Assembly: GCA_958296175.1 (NCBI GenBank)
Contig: OY282448.1
Coordinates: forward strand, 2,230,127-2,294,126
Source of the DNA: an uncultured Chloroflexota bacterium
GTDB taxonomy: Bacteria > Chloroflexota > UBA11872
Reading direction: 5' to 3'
DNA: 64,000 nucleotides
Position numbers and translations under genes: made by a program. The notes under the pieces were generated by a model, which saw nothing but the letters and a program-made list of their open reading frames with translations, had not been told where the DNA came from and ran no database searches. This document shows positions 6,565 through 44,748 of this stretch, piece by piece (positions within the stretch are counted from its first letter, which is position 1; every line of letters starts with the position of its first letter).

Positions 6565-7935
6565 ATGATGCGACTGCTGCGCGAACGGCTGGAGGCGCGC
6601 GCCGCGGCCGGCCGCCCCGTGACGGTGGCGCTGGCGGGCGCTGGACGGTTCGGCGCCAGCGTTGCGGCGCAGATATCCCAGATCGACGGCCTGCGGCTGG
6701 CGGCGGTGGCCGACCCCAACGCACGCAACGGCGCTGCGGCCCTGCGCGCCGCCGGCTGGACGGACGACCAGGTGCGCCGCTGCGAAGGCCCGGCCGCTGC
6801 CCGCGCGGCGCTGGCGGCCGGCGGCGCCGCGCTCACCCCCGACGCCGACGCGCTGGCAGCCGCGCACGTCGAGGTGTTCGTGGATGCCACCGGGATTCCC
6901 GAAACGGCGGCCCGCAACGCCTGGGCCGCGCTGCGCCTGGGGCGCCACGTGGTGATGGTGACGGTCGAAGCGGACGTCAGCTGCGGCTGGGCGCTGGCGC
7001 GCGAGGCGCGGCGGCAAGGCGTGGTCTACTCGCTGGCGGCCGGCGACCAGCCCATCGCCATCATGGAGCTGTTCGACTGGGCAGCGGCGCTGGGCCTGCG
7101 CGTGATTGCCGTGGGGCGCGGCACGCGGCGCTATCCGTTCGACCGGCACGGCGACCCCGACCAGGCCCTGGCGCGCCTGGGTTACGACGATGCCGCGGCA
7201 CGGCGGCTGCGGCTGAATCCCCAGATGTACAACTCGTTCCGCGACGGCACCAAGGCGCAGATCGAAATGTGCGCCGCGGCCAACATGACAGGGCTGCCGC
7301 CCGACCGCCGCGGCATGCACGAGCCTTCCGCCAGCCTGAACGACCTGCCCAACCTGTTTGCGCCGGCCGACGCCGGCGGCCTGCTGCACCGCGTCGGCGC
7401 GGTCGATCTGGCGAACGCCGTGACGCCCGACGGAGCTTCCGACATCCCCGAGCACGTGGCCGACGGTGTGTGGGCGGTGGTTGGGTCCGACCATCACCGC
7501 GTGCAAGAAGACCTGCGCATCCACGGCACGCGCGTGTCGCGGGACGGACGCCGCATGGCGCTGTTCCGCGAATACCACCTCTGCGGCGTGGAAACTCCGC
7601 TCAGCATTGCCCAGGCCGCCTTGCTGGGCGCTGCGTCAGGCGCGCCGCGCGAAGCGCCCGTCGCCGAAGTGCTGGCCTACGCCAAACGGACTCTGCGACC
7701 CGGCGACACGCTGGACGGTTCCGGCGGCCGTTTGGTCTACGGCCTCGTCGACCGAGCGGAGGCCCTGCAAACCGAGGCCGCGCTCCCGTTGGGCCTGGCG
7801 TACGGCGTCAGGGTGCTCGAGCCCGTGCCCGCCGACCGCCCCATCCCCGCCCATGCCGTGCAGGTCGACCCCAACGCCTTCATCGCCCGCCTGCGCGCCG
7901 CAGCCGCCGAGCCGCCCGCCGCGGCGTTCGGCTGA
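6565..7935 (+). CDS. NAD(P)-binding oxidoreductase with a SAF-like C-terminal domain (homoserine-dehydrogenase-like)
   Basis: N-terminal Rossmann motif VALAGAGRFG; 456 aa. It resembles predicted SAF-domain dehydrogenases. The exact substrate is unknown. Confidence 0.45.
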   Translation: MMRLLRERLEARAAAGRPVTVALAGAGRFGASVAAQISQIDGLRLAAVADPNARNGAAALRAAGWTDDQVRRCEGPAAARAALAAGGAALTPDADALAAAHVEVFVDATGIPETAARNAWAALRLGRHVVMVTVEADVSCGWALAREARRQGVVYSLAAGDQPIAIMELFDWAAALGLRVIAVGRGTRRYPFDRHGDPDQALARLGYDDAAARRLRLNPQMYNSFRDGTKAQIEMCAAANMTGLPPDRRGMHEPSASLNDLPNLFAPADAGGLLHRVGAVDLANAVTPDGASDIPEHVADGVWAVVGSDHHRVQEDLRIHGTRVSRDGRRMALFREYHLCGVETPLSIAQAALLGAASGAPREAPVAEVLAYAKRTLRPGDTLDGSGGRLVYGLVDRAEALQTEAALPLGLAYGVRVLEPVPADRPIPAHAVQVDPNAFIARLRAAAAEPPAAAFG

Positions 7936-8049
7936 CGACCACACGCCCCGCGCCGAGACGCTGCGCCGACCCCGCGCGCTGCCAGCCGCTACGGAGGTTG
8001 TCGAGCTAGATGGCGCGATTGACGATCCGACCCTGCGCGCTGCCAGCCG

Positions 8050-13509: not shown

Positions 13510-13701
13510 TGGCGCGCCTGCGGCGGACACTCACACGATGCTGTCGAGCGGGCGCCGCCCGTCGGCAGGTCGATTGGGTCGGGCGCTCGCCGTCGACCAG
13601 AGCCTGCAACGACGGTCAGACGTCCGTGAAACCGACAATCGTGCGTCCTGCCGTTCCGCGCGCCGAGGCGTCGGCGACTGGTAAGAGCTTTCCACGACGG
13701 C

Positions 13702-14157
13702 CTACCGCCGTTGGGCCAAGCGCTCGGTGTCCGCCTGGCGCAGCGGGCGGTGGGCGTCCAGTGTCACGGTGTCGCTGTGGTCGGGCGGGTAAGGCGGGCT
13801 GGTGATGAAGAGCGCGCGGGCCGGAGCGCCGCCGGCGGCTGTCAGTTGCAGCGTGTGTCCCGGCGGGGTGACCACGGATTCACCCGCGGCCGCCGTGCAT
13901 GCGCGCACCGCGCCCAGGTCGGCGTCATAGGTTGCGGCGCGGATGCGGCCGGCCAGCACGTAGGTCACCTGCTCCAGCGTCAGGTGCGCGTGCACGCCGT
14001 AGATGCGCCCGGGTTCGAGGCTGCCCTCGGCCAGCGCCAGATGCGCGCAGGGGCTGACGTCGATCGGACGCACCACAATCCCATCCTGCGCCGTCACGGG
14101 CGGCCCCGGCGTTCGCGTCCCAACGTGCGCACCGACGGCATCCGTGGTTTCGGTCAA
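13702..14157 (-). CDS. Cupin domain protein
   Basis: 151 aa with a cupin two-His motif (GVHAH...). Overlaps the upstream gene by 4 bp. Confidence 0.55.
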   Translation of the reverse strand: MTETTDAVGAHVGTRTPGPPVTAQDGIVVRPIDVSPCAHLALAEGSLEPGRIYGVHAHLTLEQVTYVLAGRIRAATYDADLGAVRACTAAAGESVVTPPGHTLQLTAAGGAPARALFITSPPYPPDHSDTVTLDAHRPLRQADTERLAQRR

Positions 14158-16013
14158 GGCGTCGGGTCGACTGGCCGCGGGCGGTGGAGGTCCGCTGGGG
14201 TTCCGGTCGATAACGGTCCCCCGAACGCGTCGATGACTTCGTCCGAGTCACGGCCTGGGATTGGTTTTCCCATGGCGTCCTCTATGGCGTCCAGCAGCTT
14301 GACCGCGCGGTCGCGGATGAAGCCGCCAAAGTCGTTGCGGCGCAGCAGCTCGGGTTCGATCCAGTGTGTTGCGAGCACCTCGTCCAGGCGATCTCTGCTG
14401 ATGTTCCCGGTGTTCACCAGCCTGTCGAGATATTGACTCGGAGCGCTGCCGCCGAGCATTCGATTGGTCTCGCTGGTGAGCGGCGCTTTGTTCACCACGC
14501 TATTGGAGGTCGAATAATCCACGCCATTATTCGAACACCAAGCCCGCGGGAAAATGTGATGGATGTCGACAGGCAATGAGAACCCCATGGTGTGCGCAAT
14601 CGGATTCGCATTCTTGAAGTCGTGGCTCCCCTGCTTTACCATGAGGGAAAAGAGGCCCTTGTATGCGGCGCTGTTTCGAGTACTGAGGCCAAGCAGCCGC
14701 GTAGGAGCAAAATTCGCGTCGCGAATAGTACGCGGCTCTTCGTTGCCCTCGGTCCACCCAACGACATCCTGGATGTCCATCGTGTAACGAGTTTCGTTGG
14801 CGCCGCCGTACATCTCGCCCAGTACGCCGCACCAGTACCAGCGGGCGAGCTTCGCGAGGACGTCGTGTGCGTCGAGCTGCTTGTCGAGATAGGCGCAAAT
14901 CGCCGCCAAGGGCACGAGCTGAGTTCCGTACGGCAGGTTTCGCCGGTCGAAGACCCTCTCACGGGTCAGCAACTGCGCGGCGCGTTGAAAACCGTGCTCG
15001 ACGGACGAGGCGTTGTCCTTATACTCATCGAGCGTCAGCCGCAGCACGTCGCGGCGCCGGACGCTGACCGCGCTCGTACTTCCCGGCGCGCGGCTGCGCT
15101 TGTAGCTGGCAAGCAGCGTAACCGCCTGCAAGAAGTCGGTGCTGCTCACTCCGCGCAGCACGTTCTGCTCTGCAATCCGCTCACGCCGTTCTGCCCAGTC
15201 GTCCCGCAGGCGGAAGTTGTCAGCGGCGAAGCTGGCCGTCACGAGCTCGAAGACCGACAAGGTGACGCCGCCCGTGTTCACCTTTTCGAATACCTGGCAG
15301 ACGGCCTCTTTGGGAGTTTCCCTCTTTAACTCAATGACTGGAACTTTGTATTTATTAATCGGAAGCCAGATTTTCGCAAGAAACTGGTCGATGAACTCGA
15401 CTTTTCCAGGATTGAACTTGAAGTACTCTTTGTATCCAGAGTTCCATTGAAAAGCCTCGACAGCGTTGAAGATCATCTCCAGCGGGTACAGTCCACGCTC
15501 ATACTCACGCTCGCGCGTTGTTACGTCGAGTACCACCGTGCGCCCAAAATCGGCCGTGCGCACCTTCGATTCAGGAAGCGAGAGAACCGCTTCTTCCCGG
15601 TCCAGGTCGGGGTCGAGGCATTTGGCCATGTCCAGATAATAATACAGTTTGGTTTCCTGGCCTCGCGTCGTTCGCGTGGGGACAGGGCGGCCGCTCATGA
15701 GCGCGAGAAAAAGCGAGGTCAGCCGCTGTTGGCCGTCGAGAACCAGGCCGTTGGGCGAAGTGAGAGAGTCGAGGTGGACGCCTGCGAACGGCCGCGGCAA
15801 GAAACTGCCGCTCTCCCCGCCAGTTTCCAGCACCATCACGGCGCCGATCGGGTAGGAGAGCGTGACACTGGCGATCAGCGAACGAATGTGCGCATCGTCC
15901 CAGATCCAACTGCGCTGAAAATCGGGCAGCTGGATGGCGCCTTTGCCGATGTCACTCAGGAGTTCCGAGAGCAGCGGCTCGTTTGTCTGGAACGTTCCCG
16001 AGGAGAATGCCAT
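14154..16013 (-). CDS. GmrSD-family type IV (modification-dependent) restriction endonuclease; DUF262 (ParB-like NTPase) + DUF1524 (HNH-like)
   Basis: N-terminal DUF262 hallmark LDGQQRLTSL. C-terminal DUF1524 motif DIHHIFPRAWC followed by N..V. 619 aa. The gene lies in a roughly 58% GC stretch against a roughly 70% background. Confidence 0.8.
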   Translation of the reverse strand: MAFSSGTFQTNEPLLSELLSDIGKGAIQLPDFQRSWIWDDAHIRSLIASVTLSYPIGAVMVLETGGESGSFLPRPFAGVHLDSLTSPNGLVLDGQQRLTSLFLALMSGRPVPTRTTRGQETKLYYYLDMAKCLDPDLDREEAVLSLPESKVRTADFGRTVVLDVTTREREYERGLYPLEMIFNAVEAFQWNSGYKEYFKFNPGKVEFIDQFLAKIWLPINKYKVPVIELKRETPKEAVCQVFEKVNTGGVTLSVFELVTASFAADNFRLRDDWAERRERIAEQNVLRGVSSTDFLQAVTLLASYKRSRAPGSTSAVSVRRRDVLRLTLDEYKDNASSVEHGFQRAAQLLTRERVFDRRNLPYGTQLVPLAAICAYLDKQLDAHDVLAKLARWYWCGVLGEMYGGANETRYTMDIQDVVGWTEGNEEPRTIRDANFAPTRLLGLSTRNSAAYKGLFSLMVKQGSHDFKNANPIAHTMGFSLPVDIHHIFPRAWCSNNGVDYSTSNSVVNKAPLTSETNRMLGGSAPSQYLDRLVNTGNISRDRLDEVLATHWIEPELLRRNDFGGFIRDRAVKLLDAIEDAMGKPIPGRDSDEVIDAFGGPLSTGTPADLHRPRPVDPTP

Positions 16014-18052: not shown

Positions 18053-18275
18053 CCGAACCCGCCCGCGCTCCCACCCGCCGCGCCCCGCGTTCCGAAGCGC
18101 CTTTGGCCTCTCTCGTCAGCGGTCTGAGAAAACGCCGCGGGCGGCAGGGCTGCGGGGTGTCTGTCGAGCAGGCGGGCTTGTCCACGCGGAAACCGCCGCG
18201 GGCGGGCCGCGGATGGCCGACACCGTTTGCACAGATGGCCGACATGAAACCGGCGCGGCCGGCCGGGCCGCGGCC

Positions 18276-19400
18276 CTACTCGATGAAGGTTCGCCAGGCG
18301 TAGGCTGGCTCCGGCCCGCCCGGCTCGTCCTCCAGCGCGCTGAGGTTCAGGTCGCCGAACCCCAGGCCGGGTTCGTCGCTGAGATACATGTAGCCGTCCT
18401 GCACCTCCAGCGCCTCGCCTGCCACCTGGCAGCGCAGGTCGGCTTCCGGGAAGGCGGTTTCCAGCACCCAGAAGTTGGGCGCAACCGCCGCCGCCTGCAG
18501 GGCCATCGCCGCCGACACCGGGCCGCCGGAATTGTGCGGCGCCAGCTGGACGGCATACGTCTCGGCGGCGGCCGCAATCTTGCGCACCTCCGTGATGCCG
18601 CCCGCGTGGGTCAGGTCCGGCTGAACGAACGCCGCCCCCTGCCCCTCCAGCAGCTCGCGGAAGTCCTGGCGGCTGAACAGCTTCTCGCCGCAGGCAATCG
18701 GCACGGCCATGCGCGGCGCAAGCGCACACGTGGCCTTCACGTTCTCGGCTGGAATCGGTTCCTCCATCCAAACCGGGTCGAACGGCGCCAGCGCCTGCGC
18801 GGCCTGGATCGCGTGCCGCGGAGTCAGCCGCTCGGCGCACTCGACATAAATCTCGAAGTCAGGCCCGGCCGCGTCCCGAATGCCCTGCAGCATCTCGGCG
18901 GCGAAACGGATGGCCTGCGTCTCGGTGCGGCGGCCGGGCGCGCCAAACGGCGTGACCTTCACGCCGCGGTAGCCCTGCGCCTGCGCGCGCAGCGCGCCGT
19001 CCACGTGGTCGGCCGTCGAGTCCATCCAGCGCGACACCCCGCCCGCGTACACCCGCGCCCGCCGGCGCAGCGGGCCGCCCAGCAGCCGCCAGACGGGAAC
19101 CCCGTGTCGCTTGCCGTGCAGGTCCCACAGCGCGCCGTCGATGGCCGAAATGGCGCTGCTGACGATCGGGCCGCCGCGCCAGCCCGTGCAGAGGTCGCGC
19201 CAGATCAGCTCGATTGCCGACGAGTCGCGCCCCAGCAGCCGCGGCGTGAAGTGCTGAATCGCCCCGGCCACCGCCCGCCCCCGGTCGGAGGTGGACCCCT
19301 CGCCCCAGCCGTGCAGCCCTTCGTCCGTCGACACGCGCACGAACAGCCACTCGCGCCAGCGCACGTACTTCGAAAAAACTTCGATGCCCGTAATCGTCAT
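18276..19400 (-). CDS. Enolase-superfamily enzyme (mandelate racemase / muconate lactonising enzyme family; D-galactonate-dehydratase-like)
   Basis: 374 aa. Motifs include KVTPFG, the metal ligand context D..E..D, and a GxKLxxxGG-like region (ACGEKLFS). Confidence 0.75.
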   Translation of the reverse strand: MTITGIEVFSKYVRWREWLFVRVSTDEGLHGWGEGSTSDRGRAVAGAIQHFTPRLLGRDSSAIELIWRDLCTGWRGGPIVSSAISAIDGALWDLHGKRHGVPVWRLLGGPLRRRARVYAGGVSRWMDSTADHVDGALRAQAQGYRGVKVTPFGAPGRRTETQAIRFAAEMLQGIRDAAGPDFEIYVECAERLTPRHAIQAAQALAPFDPVWMEEPIPAENVKATCALAPRMAVPIACGEKLFSRQDFRELLEGQGAAFVQPDLTHAGGITEVRKIAAAAETYAVQLAPHNSGGPVSAAMALQAAAVAPNFWVLETAFPEADLRCQVAGEALEVQDGYMYLSDEPGLGFGDLNLSALEDEPGGPEPAYAWRTFIE

Positions 19401-19470
19401 GCAGCCCTTCCGTCGTTCCGCGCGGCGCGCGCCGCCGGTGCCGTGCGGACCGCGGCGCCGCCGACCGCCG

Positions 19471-20229
19471 TCACGCCGCGGCCGTCCGAAACGGCGACAC
19501 CGCCGGACGCGCCGGCGAGGTGGACGACGGGCAAACGTCGTTCAGCGTGCAGCCGTCGCAGTCCGGCCGCCGCGCGTCGCAGACCCGCCGCCCGTGCCAG
19601 ATGACGGCCGTGCCGGCAAAAATCCAGGCGCCGCGGTCCAGGGTGTCCATCAGGTCGCGTTCGATCGTGACCGGGTCCGCCGCGCGCGTCAGCCCCAGCC
19701 GCTGCGAGAGCCGCTTGACGTGCGTATCCACCACCACGCCGCTGGCCACGCCAAAGGCTTCGCCCAGCACCACGTTGGCGCTCTTGCGCGCCACGCCGCG
19801 CAGGCGCAGCAAGTCCTCCATGCGGCGCGGCACCTCGCCGTCGAACTCGTGCACCAGCTGCGCCGCCGTTTCTCGAATGGCGCGCGCCTTGCTGCGGAAG
19901 AAGCCCGTCGGGTGGATCAGCGCTTCCACTTCCAGCTGCGAGGCCGCCGCCAGCGCCTGCGGCGTGGGAAAGCGCCCGAACAAGGCCGGCGTCACCCGGT
20001 TCACCGTCACGTCGGTGGTCTGCGCCGACAAGATCACCGCAATCAGGAACTGAAACGGCGAGCGGTAGTCGAGTTCCGCCGCCGCGTCCGGATACAGCGC
20101 GCGCAGCCGCCGCACGATCTCCGCCGCCCGCGCGCGCCGCGCCGCTTTCGACTCCCGCCAGCGCCGAACCACCAACGCCGGCCGCCCCGCGCGCCCCCGA
20201 GTCCTCCTCCCAGCCATACCCAGCAGCAT
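19471..20229 (-). CDS. nth: Endonuclease III (DNA glycosylase/AP lyase)
   Basis: HhH-GPD motifs: FQFLIAVILSAQTTD, LRLRGVARKSANVVLGEAFG (catalytic Lys), VDTHV. Fe-S cluster C-x6-C-x2-C-x5-C at the C-terminus. The exact start is uncertain. Confidence 0.85.
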   Translation of the reverse strand: MLLGMAGRRTRGRAGRPALVVRRWRESKAARRARAAEIVRRLRALYPDAAAELDYRSPFQFLIAVILSAQTTDVTVNRVTPALFGRFPTPQALAAASQLEVEALIHPTGFFRSKARAIRETAAQLVHEFDGEVPRRMEDLLRLRGVARKSANVVLGEAFGVASGVVVDTHVKRLSQRLGLTRAADPVTIERDLMDTLDRGAWIFAGTAVIWHGRRVCDARRPDCDGCTLNDVCPSSTSPARPAVSPFRTAAA

Positions 20230-20454
20230 ATCCACCCCACCGCGCCGGCGGCCACAAGGCCGAAAGACCGGCATAAGCAGTCAGCGGCCAGGGGCCGAGG
20301 GCGCGGGACGTGCGGCAAGCGCCGCGCTTGCCGCTCCCCCGGCCAAGGACGCCGCCGCGGCCGCAGCGCAGGCGGCCCACGGCCAGCCCACGGCCGGCCC
20401 ACGGGCGGCCCCTGCGCCTATAATCCCAGCGGCCGCCGCGCCCGGACGCCCTCC

Positions 20455-23400
20455 GTGCCCATCGCCAACCTCGACGACGCCTACGAGCTCGACCAAGCCG
20501 TCGGGCGCATCCTGCGCGCGCCCGACCCGCGCCAGCGTGCGGAAGCCGTCCGGCGGCTGTTCGTCGAGGTGCTGGACTTCCATTCGCAGTCCGGCCAGGT
20601 TTCGTTGCGGCCGCCGCCCGCCGGTGCGCAGCTTCCCGCCGCTGCCGAGCGCGTCGCGGTGTTGGACGGCGTGCACGTCTGTTACGTCGCGCTCCAGGCG
20701 CCGGAAAACGACCGCGTGCGCACGGCCGAAGCGTCCGCCGCGGCGCGGCGGCTGGCCGACCAGCTGGGCGACGACCTGCTGCTGGCCGTCTCCAACGCCT
20801 CCGGCCGCCAGCTGCACCTCATCCATCCGCGCGTACAGGGTGCGCGGCCCACGCTGCGCCGTCTGGTGTTCGAACAAGGCCTGCCGCGCCGCACCGCCGT
20901 CCAGCAGGCCGCCAACATCTACGCCGAATACCGCGCGTCCCGCAGCATCCGCGCCGCCCTGGACGCCGCCTTCGACGTCGAGCCGGTCACGCGGCGCTTC
21001 TTCAGCGACTACAAGAAAGTGTTCACCCAGGCCGAACGACTGGTCACCGGCTTCGGCCCCGACCAGGCCGACGACAAGCGCCTGTTCGTGCAGACGCTCT
21101 TCAACCGGCTCATGTTCGTGCACTTCCTCTCGCGCAAAGGCTGGCTGACCTTCCAGGGCAAGAACGAATACGTGCAAGCGCTTTGGGACAGCTACCAGTC
21201 CCGCCGCCCCAGCGAAACCAACTTCTACCGCGACCGTCTGCACCCCCTGTTCTTCTGCGGCCTCAACAACCCGTCGGGCACGGACGTGAACGGTCGCTAC
21301 ATGCGGAAGGTCTACGGCGACGCGCCGTTCCTGAACGGCGGCCTGTTCGAGCAAAGCGCACTGGACCGGCGGCCAGGCGTGCAGGTGCCCGACGAAGCCA
21401 TCGCACCCGTCGTGCAAGCGCGCAGCGGCTTGTTCCAGCGCTTCAACTTCACCGTCATGGAATCCACGCCCTACGACGTGGAAGTGGCCGTGGACCCGGA
21501 AATGCTGGGCAAAGTGTTCGAGGAACTGGTCAACGAACGCCACGCCAGCGGCGCCTACTACACGCCGCGCCCCGTGGTGGCCTTCATGTGCCGCGAGGCG
21601 CTGAAAGGCTTTCTGGAACACCGCGTGGACGAGTTGGACGCTCAGACTGTGGAAGACTTCGTGGACCGGCGCGACCCCTCCCGCGCCACGCTGGCGCAGG
21701 CGATCCAGCTGAGCAGCGCGCTGGACGACGTCACCGTCATCGACCCTGCCTGCGGTTCCGGCGCCTACCTGCTGGGCATGCTGCAGGAACTGCTGGAGCT
21801 GCAAACCACGCTCTACAGCCAGAAGCTGCGCCGCGACGCGCGCACCTTCTACCAGCTGAAACTGCACGTCATCCAGCGCAACCTCTACGGCGTCGACGTC
21901 GACCCGTTCGCCGTCAACATCGCCAAGCTGCGCCTCTGGCTCTCCCTGGCCATCGACTACGACGGCGACAAACCCGAGCCGCTGCCCAACCTGGACTTCA
22001 AGATCGTCTGCGGCGACAGCCTGCTCGGGCCGGAGCCGGTGCTGCACCTCTCGGCAAAGAAGTCGGAACTCGGCGAGTTGAAGGGCAAGTTCATGCTCGC
22101 CACGGCGCAAAAGGAAAAAGACGAGCTGCGCGGGGGCATCGCGGCTGAGCGCGCTCGGGTCGAGCAGGTGCTGGCGGGCGCATCCGCACCCGAAGGCGCG
22201 GTGAACTGGCGCCTGGACTTTGCCGAAGTGTTCGAGAAGCCCGGCAGCTTCGACATCGCCATTGCAAACCCGCCCTACGTGCGGCAGGAAAAGATCGGTC
22301 CCAGCAAAGCAAGGCTCGTTCGGCAATACGCCGGAGCCGTGAACGCCCGCTCGGACCTGTATTGCTATTTCTACGCGCGTGCGCTGCAACTGCTGCGGCG
22401 CGGCGGCCAACACGTCTTTATCTGCTCCAATAGCTGGCTGGACGTTGGATACGGCGCGCGGCTCCAGGATTTCCTGCTCTACAACGCGCACGTTCGCGCC
22501 ATCTACGAAAGCGCGGTGGAACGGCAATTTTCGACCGCCCAAATCAACACCGTCATCAGCGTCATCGAAAAGAACGGTGTCTGCGACGAGAGTCCGACGC
22601 GGTTCGTGTCGCTGCGGGGCGAGTTCGAGCAGGCGATGGCCGACCCGACGCTTCGCCGCCAGATTACCAAGACCCGCCGGGAACTGCTGGACGCCGCAAC
22701 GAGCGGCGTCGACAGCCGAGGACACGCCAAATTCGTGGGCGACAAGTGGGGCGGCAAGTATCTGCGCGCCCCGGACATCTATCACCACATCCTGACAACG
22801 TATAGCGACAAGTTCGTGCGGCTGGGCGATATCGCGACAGTGAGATTTGGTATAAAGACCGGCGCCAATGCGTTTTTCTTTCTCGACGAGGCGCGCATCC
22901 AGCAGTGGAACATCGAAGAAGAGTACCTTGCTCCCGTAATGACCAGCCCCCAAGAGTCCCGCAGCATCCTCGTCGACCCCGACACGCTTCCGAAGAAGCT
23001 CTTTGTGTGCCACAAGGAGAAAGACGAGCTTAGACACACGGGAGCGCTGGCGTACATTCAATGGGGTGAGACGAATGAGTACCACAAGCGGCGCAGCATG
23101 GTTTCGCGAAAGAGATGGTACGATCTGGGAATACGAGACGGGGTATATCTGGCAATGAATTTGTTAGTGCATGCGAACGCAAGAACGTATCTTTATAAAG
23201 AAGCGGTGTTTTGCAGCAACAACTTTCATGTATTTGCTTCAAAGCATAAGAATGCTAGTGTGTGCACATCACTTAATTCCACGCTTTCTCAGCTTAGCAT
23301 CAACGTGGAGTCACGATCCAATTTTGGCGAAGGTGTTCTGGAGATACAAACATATGAAACCGCTAATTTGCGGATTGTAAAGCCTGAACATATTACGACC

Positions 23401-23628
23401 ATAGATGAGTGTCTGTTCACTTCATCGGACCTTGACATTGTAAGCCGAGAGAATGGCGATCCAGCTTGGCAAGTTGACGATGTATCTGCGAATCGTCGCG
23501 CTATAGACGATGTAGTGTTTGACGTGCTTGGCCTGACCCAAGACGAACGTGACGCAGTGTACGAAAGCGTTATCGAACTAATCAGCAACCGCCTCAGCCG
23601 CGCAAGCAGCGTGCATACCACGAGGTGA
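20455..23628 (+). CDS. MmeI/Eco57I-family (COG1002) N6-adenine DNA methyltransferase, about 1057 aa. The N-terminal PD-(D/E)xK catalytic residues appear lost, so it is probably methyltransferase-only, as in DrmMI or PglX. The C-terminal target-recognition part is sharply low in GC.
   Basis: Motifs: helical-domain PFLNGGLFEQ, GAYYTPRPVV, motif I VIDPACGSGAYLLG, motif IV NPPY (IAIANPPYVRQE). GTG start at 20455. The upstream part of ORF 19291..23628 is antisense to nth and the enolase gene and is rejected. GC falls from about 68% to about 40% after roughly 23050. Confidence 0.85.
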   Translation: MPIANLDDAYELDQAVGRILRAPDPRQRAEAVRRLFVEVLDFHSQSGQVSLRPPPAGAQLPAAAERVAVLDGVHVCYVALQAPENDRVRTAEASAAARRLADQLGDDLLLAVSNASGRQLHLIHPRVQGARPTLRRLVFEQGLPRRTAVQQAANIYAEYRASRSIRAALDAAFDVEPVTRRFFSDYKKVFTQAERLVTGFGPDQADDKRLFVQTLFNRLMFVHFLSRKGWLTFQGKNEYVQALWDSYQSRRPSETNFYRDRLHPLFFCGLNNPSGTDVNGRYMRKVYGDAPFLNGGLFEQSALDRRPGVQVPDEAIAPVVQARSGLFQRFNFTVMESTPYDVEVAVDPEMLGKVFEELVNERHASGAYYTPRPVVAFMCREALKGFLEHRVDELDAQTVEDFVDRRDPSRATLAQAIQLSSALDDVTVIDPACGSGAYLLGMLQELLELQTTLYSQKLRRDARTFYQLKLHVIQRNLYGVDVDPFAVNIAKLRLWLSLAIDYDGDKPEPLPNLDFKIVCGDSLLGPEPVLHLSAKKSELGELKGKFMLATAQKEKDELRGGIAAERARVEQVLAGASAPEGAVNWRLDFAEVFEKPGSFDIAIANPPYVRQEKIGPSKARLVRQYAGAVNARSDLYCYFYARALQLLRRGGQHVFICSNSWLDVGYGARLQDFLLYNAHVRAIYESAVERQFSTAQINTVISVIEKNGVCDESPTRFVSLRGEFEQAMADPTLRRQITKTRRELLDAATSGVDSRGHAKFVGDKWGGKYLRAPDIYHHILTTYSDKFVRLGDIATVRFGIKTGANAFFFLDEARIQQWNIEEEYLAPVMTSPQESRSILVDPDTLPKKLFVCHKEKDELRHTGALAYIQWGETNEYHKRRSMVSRKRWYDLGIRDGVYLAMNLLVHANARTYLYKEAVFCSNNFHVFASKHKNASVCTSLNSTLSQLSINVESRSNFGEGVLEIQTYETANLRIVKPEHITTIDECLFTSSDLDIVSRENGDPAWQVDDVSANRRAIDDVVFDVLGLTQDERDAVYESVIELISNRLSRASSVHTTR

Positions 23629-23766
23629 TATATTCCTGGGAGCGTCGAAAAATACAAAGGACTATATGAATCATATCTATGATTTCACGAAGGATCACCC
23701 AACAAAAGCTAGTCCATATATTTTCAGTTTGCCCGGCAGTCGATGAGTGATTTGACTGGCCGAAAT

Positions 23767-24750
23767 TCACATGAGCATTGACATGTTTAGACCTTGCATG
23801 TCTTCCTTGACGGGGACTTCGAGTTTTGTGACAAAGTACCGTGGCGCACTCAATTTTACGCGTTGAATGCGTACGCTGATGCGCACTCGCTGCTTCAACA
23901 GCGCGTTTATCGGCTTTTCCTCGGCAACGGTGCGCTCGACTTTGGCCTGAATCACTTCCCCCTTACCGCCGTCTGGTGATTGGCCCGCTGGCTCGTCAAC
24001 GACAAATTCCGCTAACTGCCGCTTTGGTAAGTAGCCTTGAAAGTATCCGACCAGTGTGATGTGTTCCTCAGGGATTGGTTTCTGACTCAAACGCTTCACG
24101 CTGGCCTGAACTTGGCTCACGTCACGAAATGCAAACACGCCGCCCTTGAATCTCAGGCGGCATGTGGCCTCTTTGGAATGCAGCACGTCAACGAATTTTC
24201 GTATGGCGTTTACCGCGCGTTCGTCGGTTTCATCCCAAATATGAGCCATTGCATCGTCGCTCTCGACCGATGCCTTCAGGATGTCCTGCGTCCGCGCAAT
24301 CGCCGCCTCGACGTGACTCAGCATCGACTCGAACGCCGTCTGTGAGGACGCGCCCTCGAGTTGGAACCCAAATGACCCCCGCACGACGTCCGTAATCATG
24401 AGCCGGTAGTCTTCTCGATTCGGGATGCGGTCGAGTGCGCCCAAATCGGCTGCCGAATGCTGGCTTGCCCCGACGGCGGCGACGGCGTTTTCAAACGTCC
24501 GGACGGCGTCCCCGCCAAATCCAGCGTCGATGCCTTGTCGGCCCGCGACGGGTTTCCCCTCGAAGCTAAGAAGCGCTTCTGTGGGTTGGGCGGGAAGTAC
24601 CGCAGGGTAGTCGAGGAGTTCCGCCTCGACCTCGGCAAGCCGCTGTGTCAGCGTGTGTTGCCGGATCGCACTTTCCGGTGCCGTGCGGTCGAGCATGTCT
24701 TTCAGCGCGGCTTGTTCGGAAAGCAGAAAACTATGTTCGCGCCTGCTCAT
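23767..24750 (-). CDS. Hypothetical protein (327 aa), second gene of a two-gene operon inside the defence locus
   Basis: No motif recognised. Its start ATG overlaps the upstream stop (TAATG), and a strong RBS AGGAGGACAGTA lies in the upstream gene's 3' end. Moderately reduced GC. Confidence 0.5.
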   Translation of the reverse strand: MSRREHSFLLSEQAALKDMLDRTAPESAIRQHTLTQRLAEVEAELLDYPAVLPAQPTEALLSFEGKPVAGRQGIDAGFGGDAVRTFENAVAAVGASQHSAADLGALDRIPNREDYRLMITDVVRGSFGFQLEGASSQTAFESMLSHVEAAIARTQDILKASVESDDAMAHIWDETDERAVNAIRKFVDVLHSKEATCRLRFKGGVFAFRDVSQVQASVKRLSQKPIPEEHITLVGYFQGYLPKRQLAEFVVDEPAGQSPDGGKGEVIQAKVERTVAEEKPINALLKQRVRISVRIQRVKLSAPRYFVTKLEVPVKEDMQGLNMSMLM

Positions 24751-25367
24751 TACTGTCCTCCTTCACGGTCGAGTTTGTCGAGTTCGGACCTGGCTGCGTG
24801 ATCTTCACCCTCAGCCAGATCGATTCGCACGTAGCCTTTCCACACGCCGTCGCGCGTGTGCGACCACAGGCTATACCAATACGTCAGATCATCCACTAAC
24901 TCATCGATCTTTGCCGGATTCATAACGACGTGGTACGCGTGTAAGCCGTGGATCTTACGAATGGTGTTTGGCTCGAATAAATCTGGATATTGTTCGAGCA
25001 CATCCATTTCCTGTTGATCGTCTGTCACGTGGATGAATGTAATCACGTCAATGTCCCCAGGTGGCCGGCCTTCCGTCTGCTCGACGTCTTCGACGAAGCT
25101 TCCGTCGACCCACTGAAAGCCCCGGGTCAGGCCGGCCGCGTGCAGCCTTTCTCGGTATTCCAGTAGTCCCTGCAGCAGCTTCCGTCTGTTGGGCGTGCGT
25201 CCGAATTTTGCAACCGTGTCGAGAAGGGACGCGCGGTACGGAGATCGACGCCGAGCTGTGGGATTCTTCGGGTCGACGGCGGGAAGCAACCCCGTAAGGC
25301 GCCACGCGGGAATCTGGCTGACGATGATTTCGCTTCTGAACCGATGGCGGCGCACGCCTGTGTGCAT
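24750..25367 (-). CDS. Hypothetical protein (205 aa) with a possible minimal nucleotidyltransferase motif (GS-x16-DIDV)
   Basis: Motif WVDGSFVEDVEQTEGRPPGDIDVITF resembles a pol-beta-type NTase hG[GS]...DxD. First gene of the two-gene operon, divergent from the PLD-SNF2 gene. Confidence 0.45.
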   Translation of the reverse strand: MHTGVRRHRFRSEIIVSQIPAWRLTGLLPAVDPKNPTARRRSPYRASLLDTVAKFGRTPNRRKLLQGLLEYRERLHAAGLTRGFQWVDGSFVEDVEQTEGRPPGDIDVITFIHVTDDQQEMDVLEQYPDLFEPNTIRKIHGLHAYHVVMNPAKIDELVDDLTYWYSLWSHTRDGVWKGYVRIDLAEGEDHAARSELDKLDREGGQ

Positions 25368-25414
25368 TTCGAGTCTAGCATCGCGTCCGCTTCAGACTGC
25401 TCGACCACGACCGA

Positions 25415-25526
25415 TTGTTTGACCGTTGTTTGATTGGACAGGCCAAAAACTCCCGAAAACGGTACTGGTCGATGGTCGGTGAACCTGTTAGGCGGTTCTG
25501 CGGTTGTTTGACCGTTGTTTGATTGG
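25415..25526. promoter_or_regulatory. Divergent promoter region with two perfect 23-bp direct repeats TTGTTTGACCGTTGTTTGATTGG (25415-25437 and 25504-25526). Each repeat contains a tandem TTGTTTGA, giving four sites in all; a putative operator array.
   Basis: Exact repeats read directly in the 302-bp intergenic region between the divergently transcribed hypothetical operon and the PLD-SNF2 gene. Confidence 0.4.
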
Positions 25527-25668
25527 CGGGCGGGTTCGCTGCTCGTGAACGCGTGCTACGCTCGCGTTACAGTATTGACTTGGCGCGGCGCTCGATGAAT
25601 ATGCACGGGTTCGGGTCTACGCCAACGCGCGCGCGCGTGCGGGGCGCGGCGTTCGCCAGGTCGGCGTC

Positions 25669-28600
25669 GTGAACATCTTGCACGCCGGGACCGAACCGCC
25701 GCTGCTGGAGCGGCTGCAGGAGATGCTGGGCAGTTCCGCGCGGGCGGACATTGCCGTGGGCTACTTCTTCATGAGCGGGTTTGCGCAGGTGGCGGACGCC
25801 CTGGCCGGCCTGCAGCGGGTGCGCATTCTGGTTGGCCGCACGGACCGGCGCGTGTTGGACGATGTGGCGCGGGGGTTGCAGCAGGCGCAGGCGCTGAGCG
25901 CGCGGCTGGAGGCCGACGAGCTTACGCCGCGCGGCCAGCGGCCGGCCATCGTGCGAAACGCCGCGGCCAGCATTGCGGAAGGCGTGGCGCTGCTGCCGCA
26001 GGACGACGGCTCGCAAGCCGCGGTGATGCGCCTGCGGGACATGATTGCCGCGGGCCAGGCGGAGGTGCGCGCCTATCCGCGCGGCCCGCTGCACGCCAAG
26101 GCCTATCTGTGCTGGTACGCCAACCACGCGGAACCGGGCGCGGCCGTGGTGGGGTCGTCCAACTTTACGCTGGCGGGGTTTACGGGCAACACCGAGCTCA
26201 ACGTGCGCGTGACCGGGGACGCCGAGATGGCCGAACTGCGGAGGTGGTTCGAAGACTTGTGGCGCGATTCGCAGGACGTCGGCGCGGCGCTGCTGACCGA
26301 ACTGAACCGCTCGTGGGCGCTGGCGCGCACGCCGCCCTACCACGTGTATCTGAAGGCGCTGTACGAGCTGTATTTCACGCCCGTCGGAGACCCCGACCTC
26401 ACGCTGGCGCAGCCCGCGGAGGAGCTGGCCAATTTCCAACTGGACGCGGTGCGGCGCGGGCTGGCCATGATCGAGACGCACGGCGGCTGTTACATCGGCG
26501 ACGTGGTGGGGCTGGGCAAGACCTACGTGGGGGCCGAGCTGCTGCGCCAACTGCGCCAGAGTTATCCGAACGACGGCCCGCCGCTGATCATCTGTCCGGC
26601 TGGATTGCGGCCCATGTGGCGGCATTTCAACGAACGTTTCGGCCTGGGCGCGGAGGTCATTTCGCACAGCAGCATCCGTCCCGCGCCCGCTCCGCAGTTC
26701 GACGAAGCGCTTGGCCGGTTCGTCGACCCCGAGCCGGACGGTCGCAGCGGCGTGGTGCTGCACGACGAATATCCGAACCGCGGGCCGGTGCTGGTGGACG
26801 AGGCGCACAGCTTCCGCAACGTCAACCAGCGCTCGACCGGCTTGCAGTCCTATCTGGACGCCGGCGACCACAAGGTGGTCTTGCTCAGCGCCACGCCGCA
26901 GAACCTGGGTCCGATGGACATTTATCGACAACTGCGGCTGTTTCTGGACGATCTGGACCACGGCCTGAACATCGAGCCGCTCAATTTGGAGGAGTATTTC
27001 CACAACGCGCGGCGCTGGATGGATTACCGCACGGCGGACGAGAATTACAAGACCGAATACGCGGCCTGGCGTGAGGGCGGATCGCGCGGCGCGCCGCCCA
27101 TGGACAAACCCAAGCCGCCTCCCGTGCCCCGCGCCGACGTGCAGCAGGTGCTGGCGCCGCTGTTCATCCGCCGCCGCCGCCGCGACATCCGCGAGCTGTA
27201 CGGCGACACGGCCACCGTGGACGGCGCCCCGGTGCGTTTCCCGGATCCGGTGCTGCGCAACGTGGAGTATCGGTTGGACAAGGTGTACGCCAAGGCCGGA
27301 TCACTGGAGGACTTGCTTGCGCGCTTGAAAGAACATCGAGCGGCCAGATACCGCGCTACCAAGTATTTGCTGGCTGAGGCCAAGGACAACGACGAGTACC
27401 GGGACTTGTTCAGAGCGGGGGACCGCATTCCGCGGCTGATGCGCGGGCTGCTGCTCAAGCGGCTGGAATCCAGCATCGAGGCGTTTCGCTCTACCTTGAA
27501 GTCGCTGCTGCGCAGCAACCGCAACTTTCGCACGGCGCTGGAGGCCGGCTACGTGCCGGTTGGCGCCACGGCGACGCGTCTGCTGGCCGGGGAGATCTTC
27601 GACGCCGACGAGGCGTTGCACGCTCTCCATGCGGAGGAAAGACGGCGGCAAAACCAGGACGTTCGGCGCCTGCTGGATGATCTTCCGCATGCCGAGCGGT
27701 ACGAGCGCGCGCGCCGCCTGCTCGACGACGACGCCGGCGGGCGTCAGCCCCAGGCGGCCAAGCGTTCCACGCTGGTGCATTCCGTGGCGGACTTCGACGC
27801 CGATCGGTGGCTGGCGGACGTGGACGCGGATTTCGAGGTTCTGCGCGGCATTGCGGACCGGGTCGAAGGCATCGGGCCGGGCGACGACGACAAATTGCGC
27901 ACGCTGCGCCGCTTTTTGCAGCAGCCGGAGGCGGCGGCGGACAAGGTGCTGATCTTTTCCGAAGCCGAGACGACGATCGACTACCTGTATCGAGAGTTGA
28001 ACCCGGACGAACGAGACCCGACCTTCGCCCGCTTGACGGGTGCGACGGGCAACGCGGCGGAGGTCATCCGACGCTTTGCGCCGCGCTCGAACCTTGGACG
28101 GAACGCTCCGCGCCCGGCGGTCGAAATCCGCGTGCTGCTGGCCACCGACGTCGTGTCCGAGGGCCAGAACCTGCAAGACTGCGCCCGCGTGCTGAATTAT
28201 GACCTGCACTGGAATCCGGTGCGGCTGATCCAGCGCTTCGGTCGCGTCGACCGCATCGGGTCCGAGCACTCGGTCATCCACTTGCACAACATGTGGCCCG
28301 ACACCGCGGTGGACGCCGAGCTGGAGCTGACGGAGCGGCTCGGCAACCGCATTCAGACGTTCCACGACTCGATTGGGCTGGACAGCAAGCTGCTGTCGGA
28401 CACGGAGCGCCTGAACGCGGCGGACATGTACCGCATCTACGCCGAAGGGCGCCTGCCGGACGAGGACGACGAGCTGGACGAGGTGGCGGTCAATCAGCGC
28501 GCCGTGGCGCTCTTGCAGCGGATTCAGCGCGGCGACCCCGAACTGTGGCGCACGGTGACGACCCTGCCCGACGGGGTTCGCTCGGCGCTGAGCGGCGGCG

Positions 28601-29265
28601 GCGAGCCCGCGGACGACGACGGCGCCGCGGTTCGCCTGCAGCAGGTGCTGGAAGTTCCCGGCATGCAGATGCCGCTGGTGTCGCCGGACGAGTCGGATGC
28701 GGAACTCTCGCCCTTCGACCCTCCGCGGCCCGGCGAGACGCTGGTGCTGCTGAGCGCGGGCAAGGTCAAGGGCTGCTACGCCGCGGCGGACGGACGGGAC
28801 CCGCGGCAGATCAGCCCGGCCCAGTTCGCGCGCGCGGCTGAATGCGCCCCGGATACGCCGGGTCGGCCGCTGCCGTCCACCACCAACCAGCGCGTGATGA
28901 GCGCTTTCGAGACGTTCCGGGCCGACGTCCAGCAGCGGCTGGGCCGCGCCCGGCGTCCGCGCGATACGCAGACGCGCCGCTATGTGTCCCGCGGTCTCCG
29001 AAACGCCAGGAACGATCTCGAAGCGTCGCCGGAGGACGCGCAACGGATCGACGTGCTGCAGCGCGTGTTCTACGCCGACCTGCCGCCGCGGGTGGAAGAC
29101 GCCCTGGCTGATATCCGGCGGTTGGGGTTGCAGGGGGAGGCGTTAGTGCGGCGTCTGGAAGCGCTGCGCGAGTTTCACCGACTCAATCCCCCCGACGCTT
29201 CCGTCGAGCCGGCGCGCCCCGCAGCGCAGGTCATCCGCATCGTCTGCTCCGACGGCCTGGTCTAA
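25669..29265 (+). CDS. Fusion protein: N-terminal phospholipase-D-family (single HKD) nuclease domain + SNF2/RAD54-family helicase (SNF2_N + helicase_C), 1198 aa
   Basis: PLD HKD motif HAKAYLCW...GSSNFT. SNF2 motifs: I GDVVGLGKTYVG, II VLVDEAHSFRN (DEAH), III LLSATPQN, V LLATDVVSEGQNLQ, VI QRFGRVDRIG. GTG start at 25669. The antisense ORFs 25567..27003 and 27301..29043 are rejected. Confidence 0.85.
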   Translation: MNILHAGTEPPLLERLQEMLGSSARADIAVGYFFMSGFAQVADALAGLQRVRILVGRTDRRVLDDVARGLQQAQALSARLEADELTPRGQRPAIVRNAAASIAEGVALLPQDDGSQAAVMRLRDMIAAGQAEVRAYPRGPLHAKAYLCWYANHAEPGAAVVGSSNFTLAGFTGNTELNVRVTGDAEMAELRRWFEDLWRDSQDVGAALLTELNRSWALARTPPYHVYLKALYELYFTPVGDPDLTLAQPAEELANFQLDAVRRGLAMIETHGGCYIGDVVGLGKTYVGAELLRQLRQSYPNDGPPLIICPAGLRPMWRHFNERFGLGAEVISHSSIRPAPAPQFDEALGRFVDPEPDGRSGVVLHDEYPNRGPVLVDEAHSFRNVNQRSTGLQSYLDAGDHKVVLLSATPQNLGPMDIYRQLRLFLDDLDHGLNIEPLNLEEYFHNARRWMDYRTADENYKTEYAAWREGGSRGAPPMDKPKPPPVPRADVQQVLAPLFIRRRRRDIRELYGDTATVDGAPVRFPDPVLRNVEYRLDKVYAKAGSLEDLLARLKEHRAARYRATKYLLAEAKDNDEYRDLFRAGDRIPRLMRGLLLKRLESSIEAFRSTLKSLLRSNRNFRTALEAGYVPVGATATRLLAGEIFDADEALHALHAEERRRQNQDVRRLLDDLPHAERYERARRLLDDDAGGRQPQAAKRSTLVHSVADFDADRWLADVDADFEVLRGIADRVEGIGPGDDDKLRTLRRFLQQPEAAADKVLIFSEAETTIDYLYRELNPDERDPTFARLTGATGNAAEVIRRFAPRSNLGRNAPRPAVEIRVLLATDVVSEGQNLQDCARVLNYDLHWNPVRLIQRFGRVDRIGSEHSVIHLHNMWPDTAVDAELELTERLGNRIQTFHDSIGLDSKLLSDTERLNAADMYRIYAEGRLPDEDDELDEVAVNQRAVALLQRIQRGDPELWRTVTTLPDGVRSALSGGGEPADDDGAAVRLQQVLEVPGMQMPLVSPDESDAELSPFDPPRPGETLVLLSAGKVKGCYAAADGRDPRQISPAQFARAAECAPDTPGRPLPSTTNQRVMSAFETFRADVQQRLGRARRPRDTQTRRYVSRGLRNARNDLEASPEDAQRIDVLQRVFYADLPPRVEDALADIRRLGLQGEALVRRLEALREFHRLNPPDASVEPARPAAQVIRIVCSDGLV

Positions 29266-31501: not shown

Positions 31502-31578
31502 CGGGGAGTGGCGCAGCCTGGCAGCGCGCGGCGTTTGGGACGCCGAGGCCGCGAGTTCGAATCTCGCCTCCCCGACCA
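31502..31578 (+). tRNA. tRNA-Pro (anticodon TGG)
   Basis: Manual cloverleaf. Acceptor CGGGGAG/CTCCCCG, D-stem GCGC/GCGC, anticodon stem CGGCG/CGCCG with loop TTTGGGA, T-loop TTCGAAT. Encoded CCA. Confidence 0.85.
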
Positions 31579-35297: not shown

Positions 35298-35517
35298 GTC
35301 TCCCCGTATGGTAACGGATGCAAGGTTCGCGGCAGGAGCACTCGGGGCAATTTCTGCACCTCCGCGCGCGGCGCGCCGGCGGGGGCGCGGCGTCCAGGCC
35401 GCCGCTGCCGCGGGCAGCCGCGCCCGCGGCGTTTCGGTACGATCGGCGCGGCGCGGTCGACGGACGTGCGCGGCGCGCGGTTCCCGCCAGAACCGCAGGC
35501 GCCGGGTCGACCGGTTG

Positions 35518-35593
35518 GCGGGGGTAGCTCAGTTGGTAGAGCGCTAGCCTTCCAAGCTGGATGCCGCGGGTTCGAGTCCCGTCCCCCGCTCCC
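35518..35593 (+). tRNA. tRNA-Gly (anticodon TCC)
   Basis: Manual cloverleaf. Acceptor GCGGGGG/CCCCCGC, D-arm GCTCAGTTGGTAGAGC, anticodon loop CTTCCAA, T-arm GCGGGTTCGAGTCCCGT. Encoded CCA. Confidence 0.85.
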
Positions 35594-35726
35594 ATGGCTC
35601 GGCGGCCGCGAGGCGCCGCCGCACGTCCGGCCGGCGGCGCTCGGTATCATGCCCGCGCCAGCGGTGCCGGCCGCACGAGCGCGGCCGGCGCCGCGAACCG
35701 CTCGTCACAAACAGAAGGCGCCGGCC

Positions 35727-37066: not shown

Positions 37067-37142
37067 GCCCGGGTAGCTCAACCGGCAGAGCGGCGGTTTT
37101 GTAAACCGCAGGTTGTGGGTTCGAGTCCCACCCTGGGCTCCA
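37067..37142 (+). tRNA. tRNA-Thr (anticodon TGT)
   Basis: Manual cloverleaf. Acceptor GCCCGGG/CCTGGGC (one G-T pair), anticodon stem GCGGT/ACCGC with loop TTTGTAA, T-loop TTCGAGT. Encoded CCA. Confidence 0.8.
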
Positions 37143-44505: not shown

Positions 44506-44608
44506 ACCCAGGGCCGCTGGCGGCCGCGCCGCACGTGCGGCGCGGCCGGTTCGCGCAGGTACCATCGGGGCGTACACTCGGACCACCGGCCCCCGCCGCC
44601 CCACGCCG

Positions 44609-44681: not shown

Positions 44682-44748
44682 CCCAAGGCCATCCCGCCCA
44701 GACCGAGCTGCGGCCTCGACGCCGCGCGGCTCTCGCCAATTGCCGCTG

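Follow-up and report, generated by a model that had tools for sequence, protein, structure and literature searches.

A widespread DUF6932 nucleotidyltransferase gene pair, repeatedly embedded in restriction-modification loci, as a candidate abortive-infection or toxin-antitoxin-like module

A stretch of 64,000 nucleotides (nt) from the genome of an uncultured Chloroflexota bacterium (contig OY282448.1; this whole stretch is called the window here) carries two adjacent open reading frames (ORFs) between a DNA methyltransferase (MTase) gene and a helicase gene. The ORF of 205 amino acids (aa) was named gene A and that of 327 aa gene B. We found that A and B are a real, widespread, mobile and translationally coupled gene pair, and that A is, judged from its sequence and its predicted structure, a nucleotidyltransferase (NTase) of the polymerase-beta (pol-beta) type and the sole enzyme of the pair. 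The reading that we prefer, to which we give a probability of only about 0.45, is that the pair could be an autonomous mobile module resembling abortive-infection or toxin-antitoxin (TA) systems, with B as the sensor or regulator and A as a nucleotidyl-transferring effector. The parts of the pair are as follows.

24750..25367, minus strand: gene A, predicted DUF6932 minimal pol-beta-type nucleotidyltransferase, 205 aa, ATG start (PF22014, PDC-M63A, phrog_9194, AlphaFold2 model, Foldseek)
23767..24750, minus strand: gene B, conserved partner, 327 aa, ATG start, multi-domain, without a Pfam family (phrog_18731, AlphaFold2 model, pairing with A)
24748..24752, minus strand: TAATG junction, stop of A and start of B (sequence)
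24757..24762, minus strand: AGGAGG ribosome-binding site of gene B, within gene A, 6 nt before the ATG (sequence)
25368..25668, no strand: divergent intergenic region of 301 nt between gene A and the PLD-SNF2 helicase gene, presumed to hold the promoters of both (ORF coordinates)

The stop codon of A (TAA, 24752-24750) and the start codon of B (ATG, 24750-24748) have one base in common, and the minus-strand sequence at the junction is TGAAGGAGGACAGTAATG. This overlap and the strong ribosome-binding site inside A had both been named in the original prediction, an earlier reading made from the letters alone, and both were read again from the minus strand. The first 10 codons of A were missing in 55 of 60 homologues, so its true start may be a few codons downstream, with the GTG at codon 5 as a candidate. 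A scan for promoters and terminators around the pair gave no excess over shuffled sequences, and no consensus promoter stood above the shuffle background.

We scanned genomes, one per GTDB species, with an alignment of A and found relatives in at least 578 species-level genomes. These span Chloroflexota, Acidobacteriota, Spirochaetota, Planctomycetota and many Pseudomonadota, and they include the archaea Methanothrix, Methanocalculus and Methanomicrobiaceae. Pairing was tested at 80 loci of these relatives, 79 of which had enough downstream sequence, and a B homologue followed A directly on the same strand at 79 of the 79, mostly with a 4-nt ATGA overlap. The result was the same from either side: a DUF6932 gene lay immediately upstream in every context found through B homologues, and a B homologue immediately downstream in every context found through A homologues. 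The pairwise identities of A and B were correlated (r = 0.78), and in 90% of comparisons A was the better conserved of the two, a pattern to be expected of an enzyme whose partner, a sensor or antitoxin, evolves faster. The adjacency and the parallel divergence both support the earlier proposal of a functional, translationally coupled pair.

The original prediction could match neither gene to a family that it could name, and this has to be revised. A matched the Pfam family DUF6932 (PF22014) at 102.4 bits (cut-off 27, E = 3.8e-29) over profile positions 2-142 of 142, and PF22014 was present in all 120 A homologues among the matches listed. It also matched phrog_9194 (1.2e-30) and the PADLOC model PDLC04744 of PDC-M63A (2.7e-11, 41.7 bits, profile positions 27-149 of 152). 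B matched a PHROG family as well, and some members of its family weakly matched PDC-M63B (both below). An AlphaFold2 (AF2) model of A, built on 60 homologues with a predicted local distance difference test score (pLDDT) of 89.8, has its elements in the order of a pol-beta NTase: a strand, G89-S90, a helix, a strand with D105-x-D107 and a third strand, with core strands at 83-88 and 106-113. The catalytic positions are given below.

25044..25112, minus strand: putative NTase catalytic motif, A residues 86-108, WVDGSFVEDVEQTEGRPPGDIDV, with G89-S90 after strand 1 and D105-x-D107 (D105-I-D107) on strand 2 (alignment and model)
24939..24941, minus strand: codon 143 of A, His, at the position of the third catalytic Asp (alignment)

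The GS...DxD motif that had been noticed in the upstream protein was well supported, because G89, S90, D105 and D107 were invariant in 60 of 60 aligned homologues and in 90 of 91 locus copies, the sole exception being a gap in a fragmented copy. In the homologue and locus alignments K177 was invariant too and H170 nearly so. The third catalytic carboxylate is present in the family (Asp in 56 of 60 sequences, His in the other 4) and missing from the window copy, which has His143; His also occurs in L007, L024 and P0037 (L and P are our handles). Homologues with Asp at this position include those of Pseudomonas sp. 1928-m (L057) and Novacetimonas hansenii (L009). Top Foldseek matches of the model in the PDB were NTases, namely 2rff, the minimal nucleotidyltransferase (MNT) antitoxin MntA (7ae2_B, second-best), CdnC (E = 0.15) and a CCA-adding enzyme, though these matches were weak (best E = 6.9e-3, template-modelling (TM) score at most 0.46) and no solved structure was close. 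A further feature of A is a conserved N-terminal extension, IPxW..G.LPP..RSPY. A matched neither of the MNT families of Pfam (PF01909, PF18765) and neither the AbiEii nor the CBASS models of PADLOC. Sequence and profile searches of A and B against the PDB gave nothing meaningful, and NCBIfam also gave nothing. tblastn of both against 50,697 phage records found no match, despite the PHROG family matches of both. An hhalign comparison of the A profile with a single MNT sequence from L001 was uninformative, and a literature search found no paper mentioning DUF6932.

Gene B has no Pfam family and matched 0 PADLOC families at E <= 1, but it matched phrog_18731 (5.2e-42). A Pfam match to ARPP-2 was rejected as noise (E = 0.003, 17 bits with a cut-off of 27, in 1 of 35 family members). 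When 1.84 billion cluster representatives (50% identity) were searched with a profile of B, 1580 relatives were found, 615 of them below 1e-30 and nearly all of about 300-315 aa. Four parts can be told apart in the AF2 model of B (pLDDT 85.1): a helical hairpin at the N-terminus, an alpha/beta domain in the centre, a bundle of helices and, towards the C-terminus, a barrel of about 90 residues. The B parts that matter here are listed in true numbering, and numbers in the B alignment are lower by one.

24547..24750, minus strand: B residues 1-68, predicted N-terminal helical hairpin and first strand (model helices 3-22 and 28-46)
24364..24378, minus strand: B residues 125-129, GSFGF motif of the central domain, the most conserved feature of the family (alignments)
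23818..24075, minus strand: B residues ~226-311, predicted C-terminal oligonucleotide/oligosaccharide-binding (OB) fold (Foldseek against the PDB)

In the GSFGF motif G, S and G were invariant across the B alignments and the last F nearly so. Because the invariant residues are chiefly Gly, Pro and Phe, with few polar ones (R37, T120, S126, D176, R178 and R220) and no invariant His, Glu or Lys in the family alignments, B looks like a binding or scaffold protein without apparent catalytic residues, not an enzyme. The barrel matched OB folds of about 90 residues in the PDB (SSB, RPA, Rim1, the N-terminal anticodon-binding domain of LysRS, and CusF; E about 1e-2, probability 0.97-1.00) and, among predicted viral structures, SSB and cold-shock domains. 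At L022, in a Latescibacterota metagenome-assembled genome (MAG; OZ242361.1, 10615-12291), the gene after the DUF6932 gene consists of B residues 1-67 fused to a complete ApeA (ApeA_NTD1 and HEPN_Apea), and no other B-derived sequence was found at this locus. The N-terminal hairpin is thus, judged from this fusion, a separable module.

Neighbouring genes were censused at 85 non-redundant loci by clustering the proteins within 7 kb and confirming their identities by Pfam. HsdS (14 loci), HsdM (13 loci) and HsdR (13 loci) were the commonest neighbours, in agreement with the proposed linkage to restriction and defence genes, and a YgjP-like peptidase was found at 6 loci. Restriction-modification (R-M) genes were linked to the pair at 27 of the 85 loci (~30%): a type I component was nearby in 22, and five further loci carried homologues of the MTase and helicase neighbours seen in the window. 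At 12 of the 85 the pair lay between same-strand hsdM/hsdS and hsdR, and in L031, L039, L071 and L079 it overlapped hsdS or hsdR by 4 nt, which points to co-expression rather than random insertion. Among the nearest neighbours on each side (146 proteins) the top domains were Methylase_S, N6_Mtase, HsdM_N and HSDR_N, with Eco57I, MmeI and Type_ISP lower. A linkage of about 30% is a strong enrichment against the rough expectation, an estimate and not a computed figure, that far fewer than 1% of random 14-kb neighbourhoods would overlap a type I operon. Cultured strains with R-M-embedded copies include Pseudomonas sp. 1928-m, Halomonas urmiana TBZ3 and Methanocalculus chunghsingensis.

The layout of the window was itself found elsewhere, which answers the earlier suggestion that synteny with the PLD-SNF2 and MTase genes should be looked for in other genomes. 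Three loci were counted as repeating it, L015 and L040 exactly, with the helicase divergent from A and the MTase convergent with B, and it is kept at only ~49% identity of A and 63% of the helicase. At L005 both flanking genes are reduced to degraded remnants; at L053 the MTase and helicase genes adjoin each other with the pair nearby, and at L054 both are upstream of the pair. Other copies are in mobile contexts. Plasmid copies adjoin ParA/RepA partition and replication genes (L002, L003), the pair at L009 is on an integrative and conjugative element (ICE) with TraG/ParB, and one copy adjoins an integrase on a P. aeruginosa megaplasmid. Islands with recombinase, CRISPR or HEPN-MNT genes and prophage edges were further contexts, and PIN-Phd (PIN/PhdYeFM) TA genes and AAA_15 ATPases were further neighbours.

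In the window the pair is flanked by the following genes.

19291..23628, plus strand: Eco57I / type IIG-like (DrmMI-like) DNA methyltransferase, convergent with gene B (Pfam Eco57I 4e-33, MmeI_Mtase, N6_Mtase; PADLOC REase_MTase_IIG 1e-78)
25669..29265, plus strand: fusion of a PLD (HKD) nuclease and an SNF2 helicase, divergent from gene A (Pfam PLDc_2, Helicase_C; PADLOC HKD+Snf2 8.9e-50, DrmD 1.5e-37)

The pair does lie between a modification gene (the IIG-like MTase) and a translocase gene (PLD-SNF2), as had been described, but it is antisense to both and hence is not co-transcribed with them. The GC content of the pair is 57% (65% at third codon positions, GC3) vs 69.5% in the window, and GC3 of the helicase and VanW genes is 87-88%; the 138-nt spacer after B (23629-23766) has 40% GC. 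Antisense orientation and foreign composition together indicate that the pair was inserted horizontally into the MTase-helicase locus at a later time, as an autonomous module rather than a native subunit. The MTase gene is a GC mosaic (5' third 72-76%, middle 60-66%, last 600 nt ~45%), and the mosaic over the MTase gene and the pair (19000-25700) suggests that the C-terminal (specificity) part of the MTase and the pair arrived by later horizontal exchange. We rejected the pair as an obligate subunit of the MTase/PLD-SNF2 system: it is antisense and compositionally foreign here, most loci have no R-M neighbour, and copies also occur on plasmids, ICEs and at prophage edges. The earlier suggestion of accessory factors of the surrounding system, taken as an obligate relation, was therefore not upheld.

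The cassette type itself has been listed before. PADLOC includes PDC-M63, an unvalidated phage-defence candidate composed of PDC-M63A and PDC-M63B (cassette FAM_00167>>FAM_00523, 45 instances; Payne et al. 2024, bioRxiv 10.1101/2024.01.29.577857). The PDC systems of PADLOC were picked out by "guilt by embedding", with BREX, DISARM and type I R-M loci as the hosts. PDC-M63 is likewise a two-gene cassette with a small A followed by a B of about 300 aa. The A proteins of Pseudomonas and Novacetimonas matched PDC-M63A (1e-10) as did A of the window, and R-M embedding was reproduced independently for the present pair. PDC-M63B was matched weakly, by 3 of 35 members of the B family (three models, best 8.9e-5; B of L009, 1.3e-3). 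The present family, with its 1580 B representatives and at least 578 species genomes, is much larger and broader than those 45 instances. Because A of the window matches PDC-M63A and its B matches no PDC-M63B model, PADLOC would not call the locus, and on these profile comparisons the window pair is a divergent PDC-M63 relative that PADLOC calling misses.

A second relationship concerns the fold of B. When the whole-length model was compared with predicted viral structures, it matched a DUF6575 domain protein (1.6e-11) and Q6NE06 of Leptospira phage LE1 (E = 2.3e-8, probability 1.00 over 339 columns, but a TM score of 0.38). One E. coli PD system that has been validated by experiment contains a DUF6575 domain (Vassallo et al.). 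Q6NE06 is a PDC-M02B protein (1e-64) encoded 2 nt after PDC-M02A, a DUF4365 nuclease-like protein of 176 aa (genes LE1-0038/0037, L091 38735-40413), and plasmid relatives of Q6NE06 have an annotated DUF4365 gene directly upstream in 4 of 5 cases. In hhalign the B family aligned to a six-sequence PDC-M02B alignment with a probability of 62% (E = 7.4e-5) over 164 columns that include GSFGFxxE; the B profile aligned only weakly to the single LE1 protein (probability 6%), and there was no direct hidden Markov model match between B and PDC-M02B. PDC-M02 resembles the present pair in having an enzyme of ~175 aa upstream that abuts or overlaps by a few nt a larger partner (~375 aa) with GSFGFxxE and, judged by Foldseek, an overall fold like that of B. 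It differs in that its upstream enzyme is DUF4365 (PD-(D/E)xK-like) and not an NTase, the sequence similarity of the partners is marginal, and PDC-M02 is itself unvalidated. The PDC-M02 cassette was seen on a temperate phage (L091) and on plasmids (L092-L096) of Spirochaetota, Bacillota, Bdellovibrionota and Alphaproteobacteria, and one copy adjoins DUF262 (GmrSD-like) genes and a HicAB module.

We assigned the role of effector to A and that of sensor to B because A is the only enzyme, B evolves faster, and a B-like partner joins a different effector-type enzyme in PDC-M02. In the preferred reading translational coupling would make A and B in fixed proportion, and an A:B complex would keep A inactive, with the N-terminal hairpin of B probably docking A. 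The OB fold of B probably binds single-stranded nucleic acid and would read nucleic acid as a sign that the cell is infected or that restriction has failed. A would then be released or activated and would nucleotidylylate an RNA or protein that is essential to the cell, much as the NTase toxins MenT and AbiEii modify tRNA, and growth of the infected cell would stop, which would be the defence phenotype. AbiEii and MenT have the NTase fold and belong to two-gene modules for which R-M loci are a frequent insertion site, and their chemistry, nucleotidylylation of tRNA acceptor ends, is a plausible effector precedent. They differ from the present pair in that A had no AbiEii match in PADLOC, the gene order is reversed (AbiEi or MenA is upstream of the NTase there), and B is not a winged helix-turn-helix antitoxin, a marginal AbiEi match being found in 1 of 35 B members (0.0053). 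We also considered a bolder extension, which we regard as doubtful: B-like proteins (the B family, PDC-M63B, PDC-M02B and perhaps DUF6575) would form one superfamily of OB-fold sensors or adaptors that couple a nucleic-acid cue to interchangeable small enzymes, and the present pair would be an NTase-armed second-line guard of R-M systems. The cue might arise while restriction runs or is blocked, and the partner could be a nucleotidyltransferase (DUF6932), a nuclease (DUF4365) or even, through the detachable hairpin, a HEPN RNase (ApeA); such a mechanism would be new, with a logic analogous to that of PrrC.

Several results weigh against the preferred reading and explain why we do not rate it higher. 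At about 70% of loci no R-M gene lies within 7 kb. PDC-M63AB has been put to a single published test, deletion from the native host E. coli NILS69, and this gave no phenotype against 10 phages; B of the window matches no PDC-M63B model. The fold matches of A to NTases are weak, and A of the window could be impaired because His143 replaces the third catalytic Asp. The chimera at L022 fits more naturally with A regulating a downstream effector. In L040 (10576-11262) B lacks the OB domain and in L084 (10549-10773) most of B is gone, with A intact in both, which argues against A as a constitutively lethal toxin held only by B; both sequences, like L033 and L021 below, are from long-read MAGs, and some of these B variants may be assembly errors. 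The findings on families and neighbours leave the idea of the original prediction standing: A and B did not both fall in well-characterised unrelated families, and the distance of many copies from defence genes was not such as to dismiss it.

The chimera and the truncations fit better with a type VII TA logic like that of MntA-HepT, in which A would neutralise B by nucleotidylylating it (T120 and S126 are candidate acceptors) after docking on the hairpin, and B would be the growth-arresting effector that sequesters RNA or single-stranded DNA through its OB fold. The order of a small pol-beta NTase directly upstream of a larger partner is that of MNT-HEPN modules, the MNT antitoxin is the second-best PDB fold match of A, invariant hydroxyl residues flank GSFGF, and at L022 the partner of the NTase is a genuine HEPN effector that bears the first 67 residues of B. 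This chimera is, however, a single MAG locus. A is outside PF01909/PF18765 and has an N-terminal extension that MNTs lack, and B has no HEPN match: its model is mixed alpha/beta plus OB, without an all-helical Rx4-6H domain, an invariant His, a recognisable toxin domain or invariant catalytic-type residues. Since B also evolves faster than A, and the B-like protein of PDC-M02 is paired with an enzyme of effector rather than neutraliser type, we think it unlikely that A is the antitoxin. CBASS- or Hailong-type signalling, with A making a nucleotide or oligonucleotide second messenger and B as receptor and effector, would agree with the weak similarity of A to CdnC and with an OB fold able to bind an oligonucleotide product. 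Yet neither protein matched a CBASS model in PADLOC, the C-terminal lobe of CD-NTases is missing from A (~190 aa), and no effector domain (nuclease, transmembrane segment, TIR or phospholipase) could be recognised in B, so that this explanation seems to us very far-fetched.

The genomic contexts bear on two more explanations. The pair could be a selfish addiction (TA) module without an anti-phage role, for which R-M operons and defence islands are merely permissive insertion sites. Copies beside partition and replication genes and on an ICE, neighbouring PIN/PhdYeFM and HicAB TA genes and integrases, the foreign GC of the pair and the lack of a phenotype for PDC-M63AB would all suit this. Sense orientation in hsd operons with 4-nt overlaps to hsdS or hsdR, and a MTase/pair/PLD-SNF2 layout kept over large divergence, are hard to reconcile with it, and it overlaps the preferred reading in that many TA modules are abortive-infection systems; we regard pure addiction as rather improbable. 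Alternatively, A and B could be dedicated accessory subunits or regulators of the flanking R-M system or, as a variant, a PrrC-like guard bound physically to the R-M complex and set off once a phage anti-restriction protein blocks that complex. The 27 R-M-linked loci, 12 of them inside type I operons, and the arrangement conserved in L015 and L040 speak for this, and PrrC/Rlo and TgvAB are precedents of functional genes in type I operons, where they share the position of the pair between hsdM/hsdS and hsdR; the pair is there on the same strand and in some cases translationally coupled. TgvAB is also an example of how a cassette of two embedded genes can act in defence independently. But the pair has neither the ABC-ATPase/anticodon-nuclease domain of PrrC nor the GmrSD/DUF262 domain of TgvAB, and PrrC is almost exclusively embedded in type I loci vs ~15-25% of the present pairs. 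The R-M partners are unrelated in type (type I, IIG-like/PLD-SNF2, MmeI, ISP), the MTase and helicase genes of L053 and L054 are adjacent without the pair in between, and the prevalence of loci without R-M genes counts here as well. We therefore think a dedicated accessory role quite improbable, and the autonomous module remains the reading that we prefer.

The pair is not categorically new, since A is in a Pfam DUF and the cassette type is listed as a computational candidate. What is new is how large and broad the family is, the figures for its embedding in several types of R-M operon, the detachable hairpin, the His143 variant of the window copy and, for B, an OB-fold architecture and a likely kinship to PDC-M02B and DUF6575 proteins. 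Should the pair prove to work in defence or abortive infection, a very widespread family, from Chloroflexota to Pseudomonadota and methanogenic archaea, would join the immune repertoire. It would also make a case for the wiring of small effector enzymes to a shared sensor scaffold and for the repeated building of cassettes into R-M operons. If it is an addiction module only, the finding is ordinary. In either case a vague pair of hypothetical genes can now be tested at defined sites: D105, D107 and H143 of A, T120, S126 and the OB fold of B, and B residues 1-68 as the probable partner-binding module.

Some further variants of B were seen. L033 (10567-11118) has an in-frame deletion of B residues ~56-116 and L021 (10567-11497) has a B with a single frameshift, with A intact in both. 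Three B homologues among P0186, P0189, P0235 and P0180 have a helical TPR-like N-terminal extension that replaces or precedes the hairpin, and the B match is shifted by ~60-65 residues. P0180 starts with the A-type N-terminal motif PIPDWDRRGIIPP fused straight to B. The odd C-termini of P0253, P0214, P0163 and P0258 were considered as domain swaps and rejected, since they are low-complexity tails that we read as frameshifted ORFs.

The surroundings of the pair gave a few more observations. In L015 (Dehalococcoidia) extra ORFs are present between the helicase and the MTase genes (7606-9039 and 11487-13688), and therefore the MTase-helicase intergenic slot seems to be a recurrent insertion site. 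The MTase ORF of the window (1445 aa, GTG at 19291) overlaps by ~310 nt a 463-aa ORF (18213-19604) that had no Pfam or PADLOC match. The alignment to the MTase homologues of L015 and L040 begins only at residue 384, so the MTase start is putative and the N-terminal ~380 residues are outside the match. A GmrSD-type gene (14154-16013, minus strand; PF03235, PADLOC PDC-M55C and HEC-05 models, 60% GC) lies 8 kb from the pair, separated from the MTase gene by transaldolase-like and glyoxalase-like ORFs; it is likely a second defence gene of the neighbourhood, which for this reason was taken as a defence island. Downstream of the island are four tRNA genes, Pro-TGG (31502-31578), Gly-TCC (35517-35594), Thr-TGT (37067-37142) and Thr-GGT (44608-44685), the first of which begins 150 nt past the VanW-domain gene and is a possible integration landmark.

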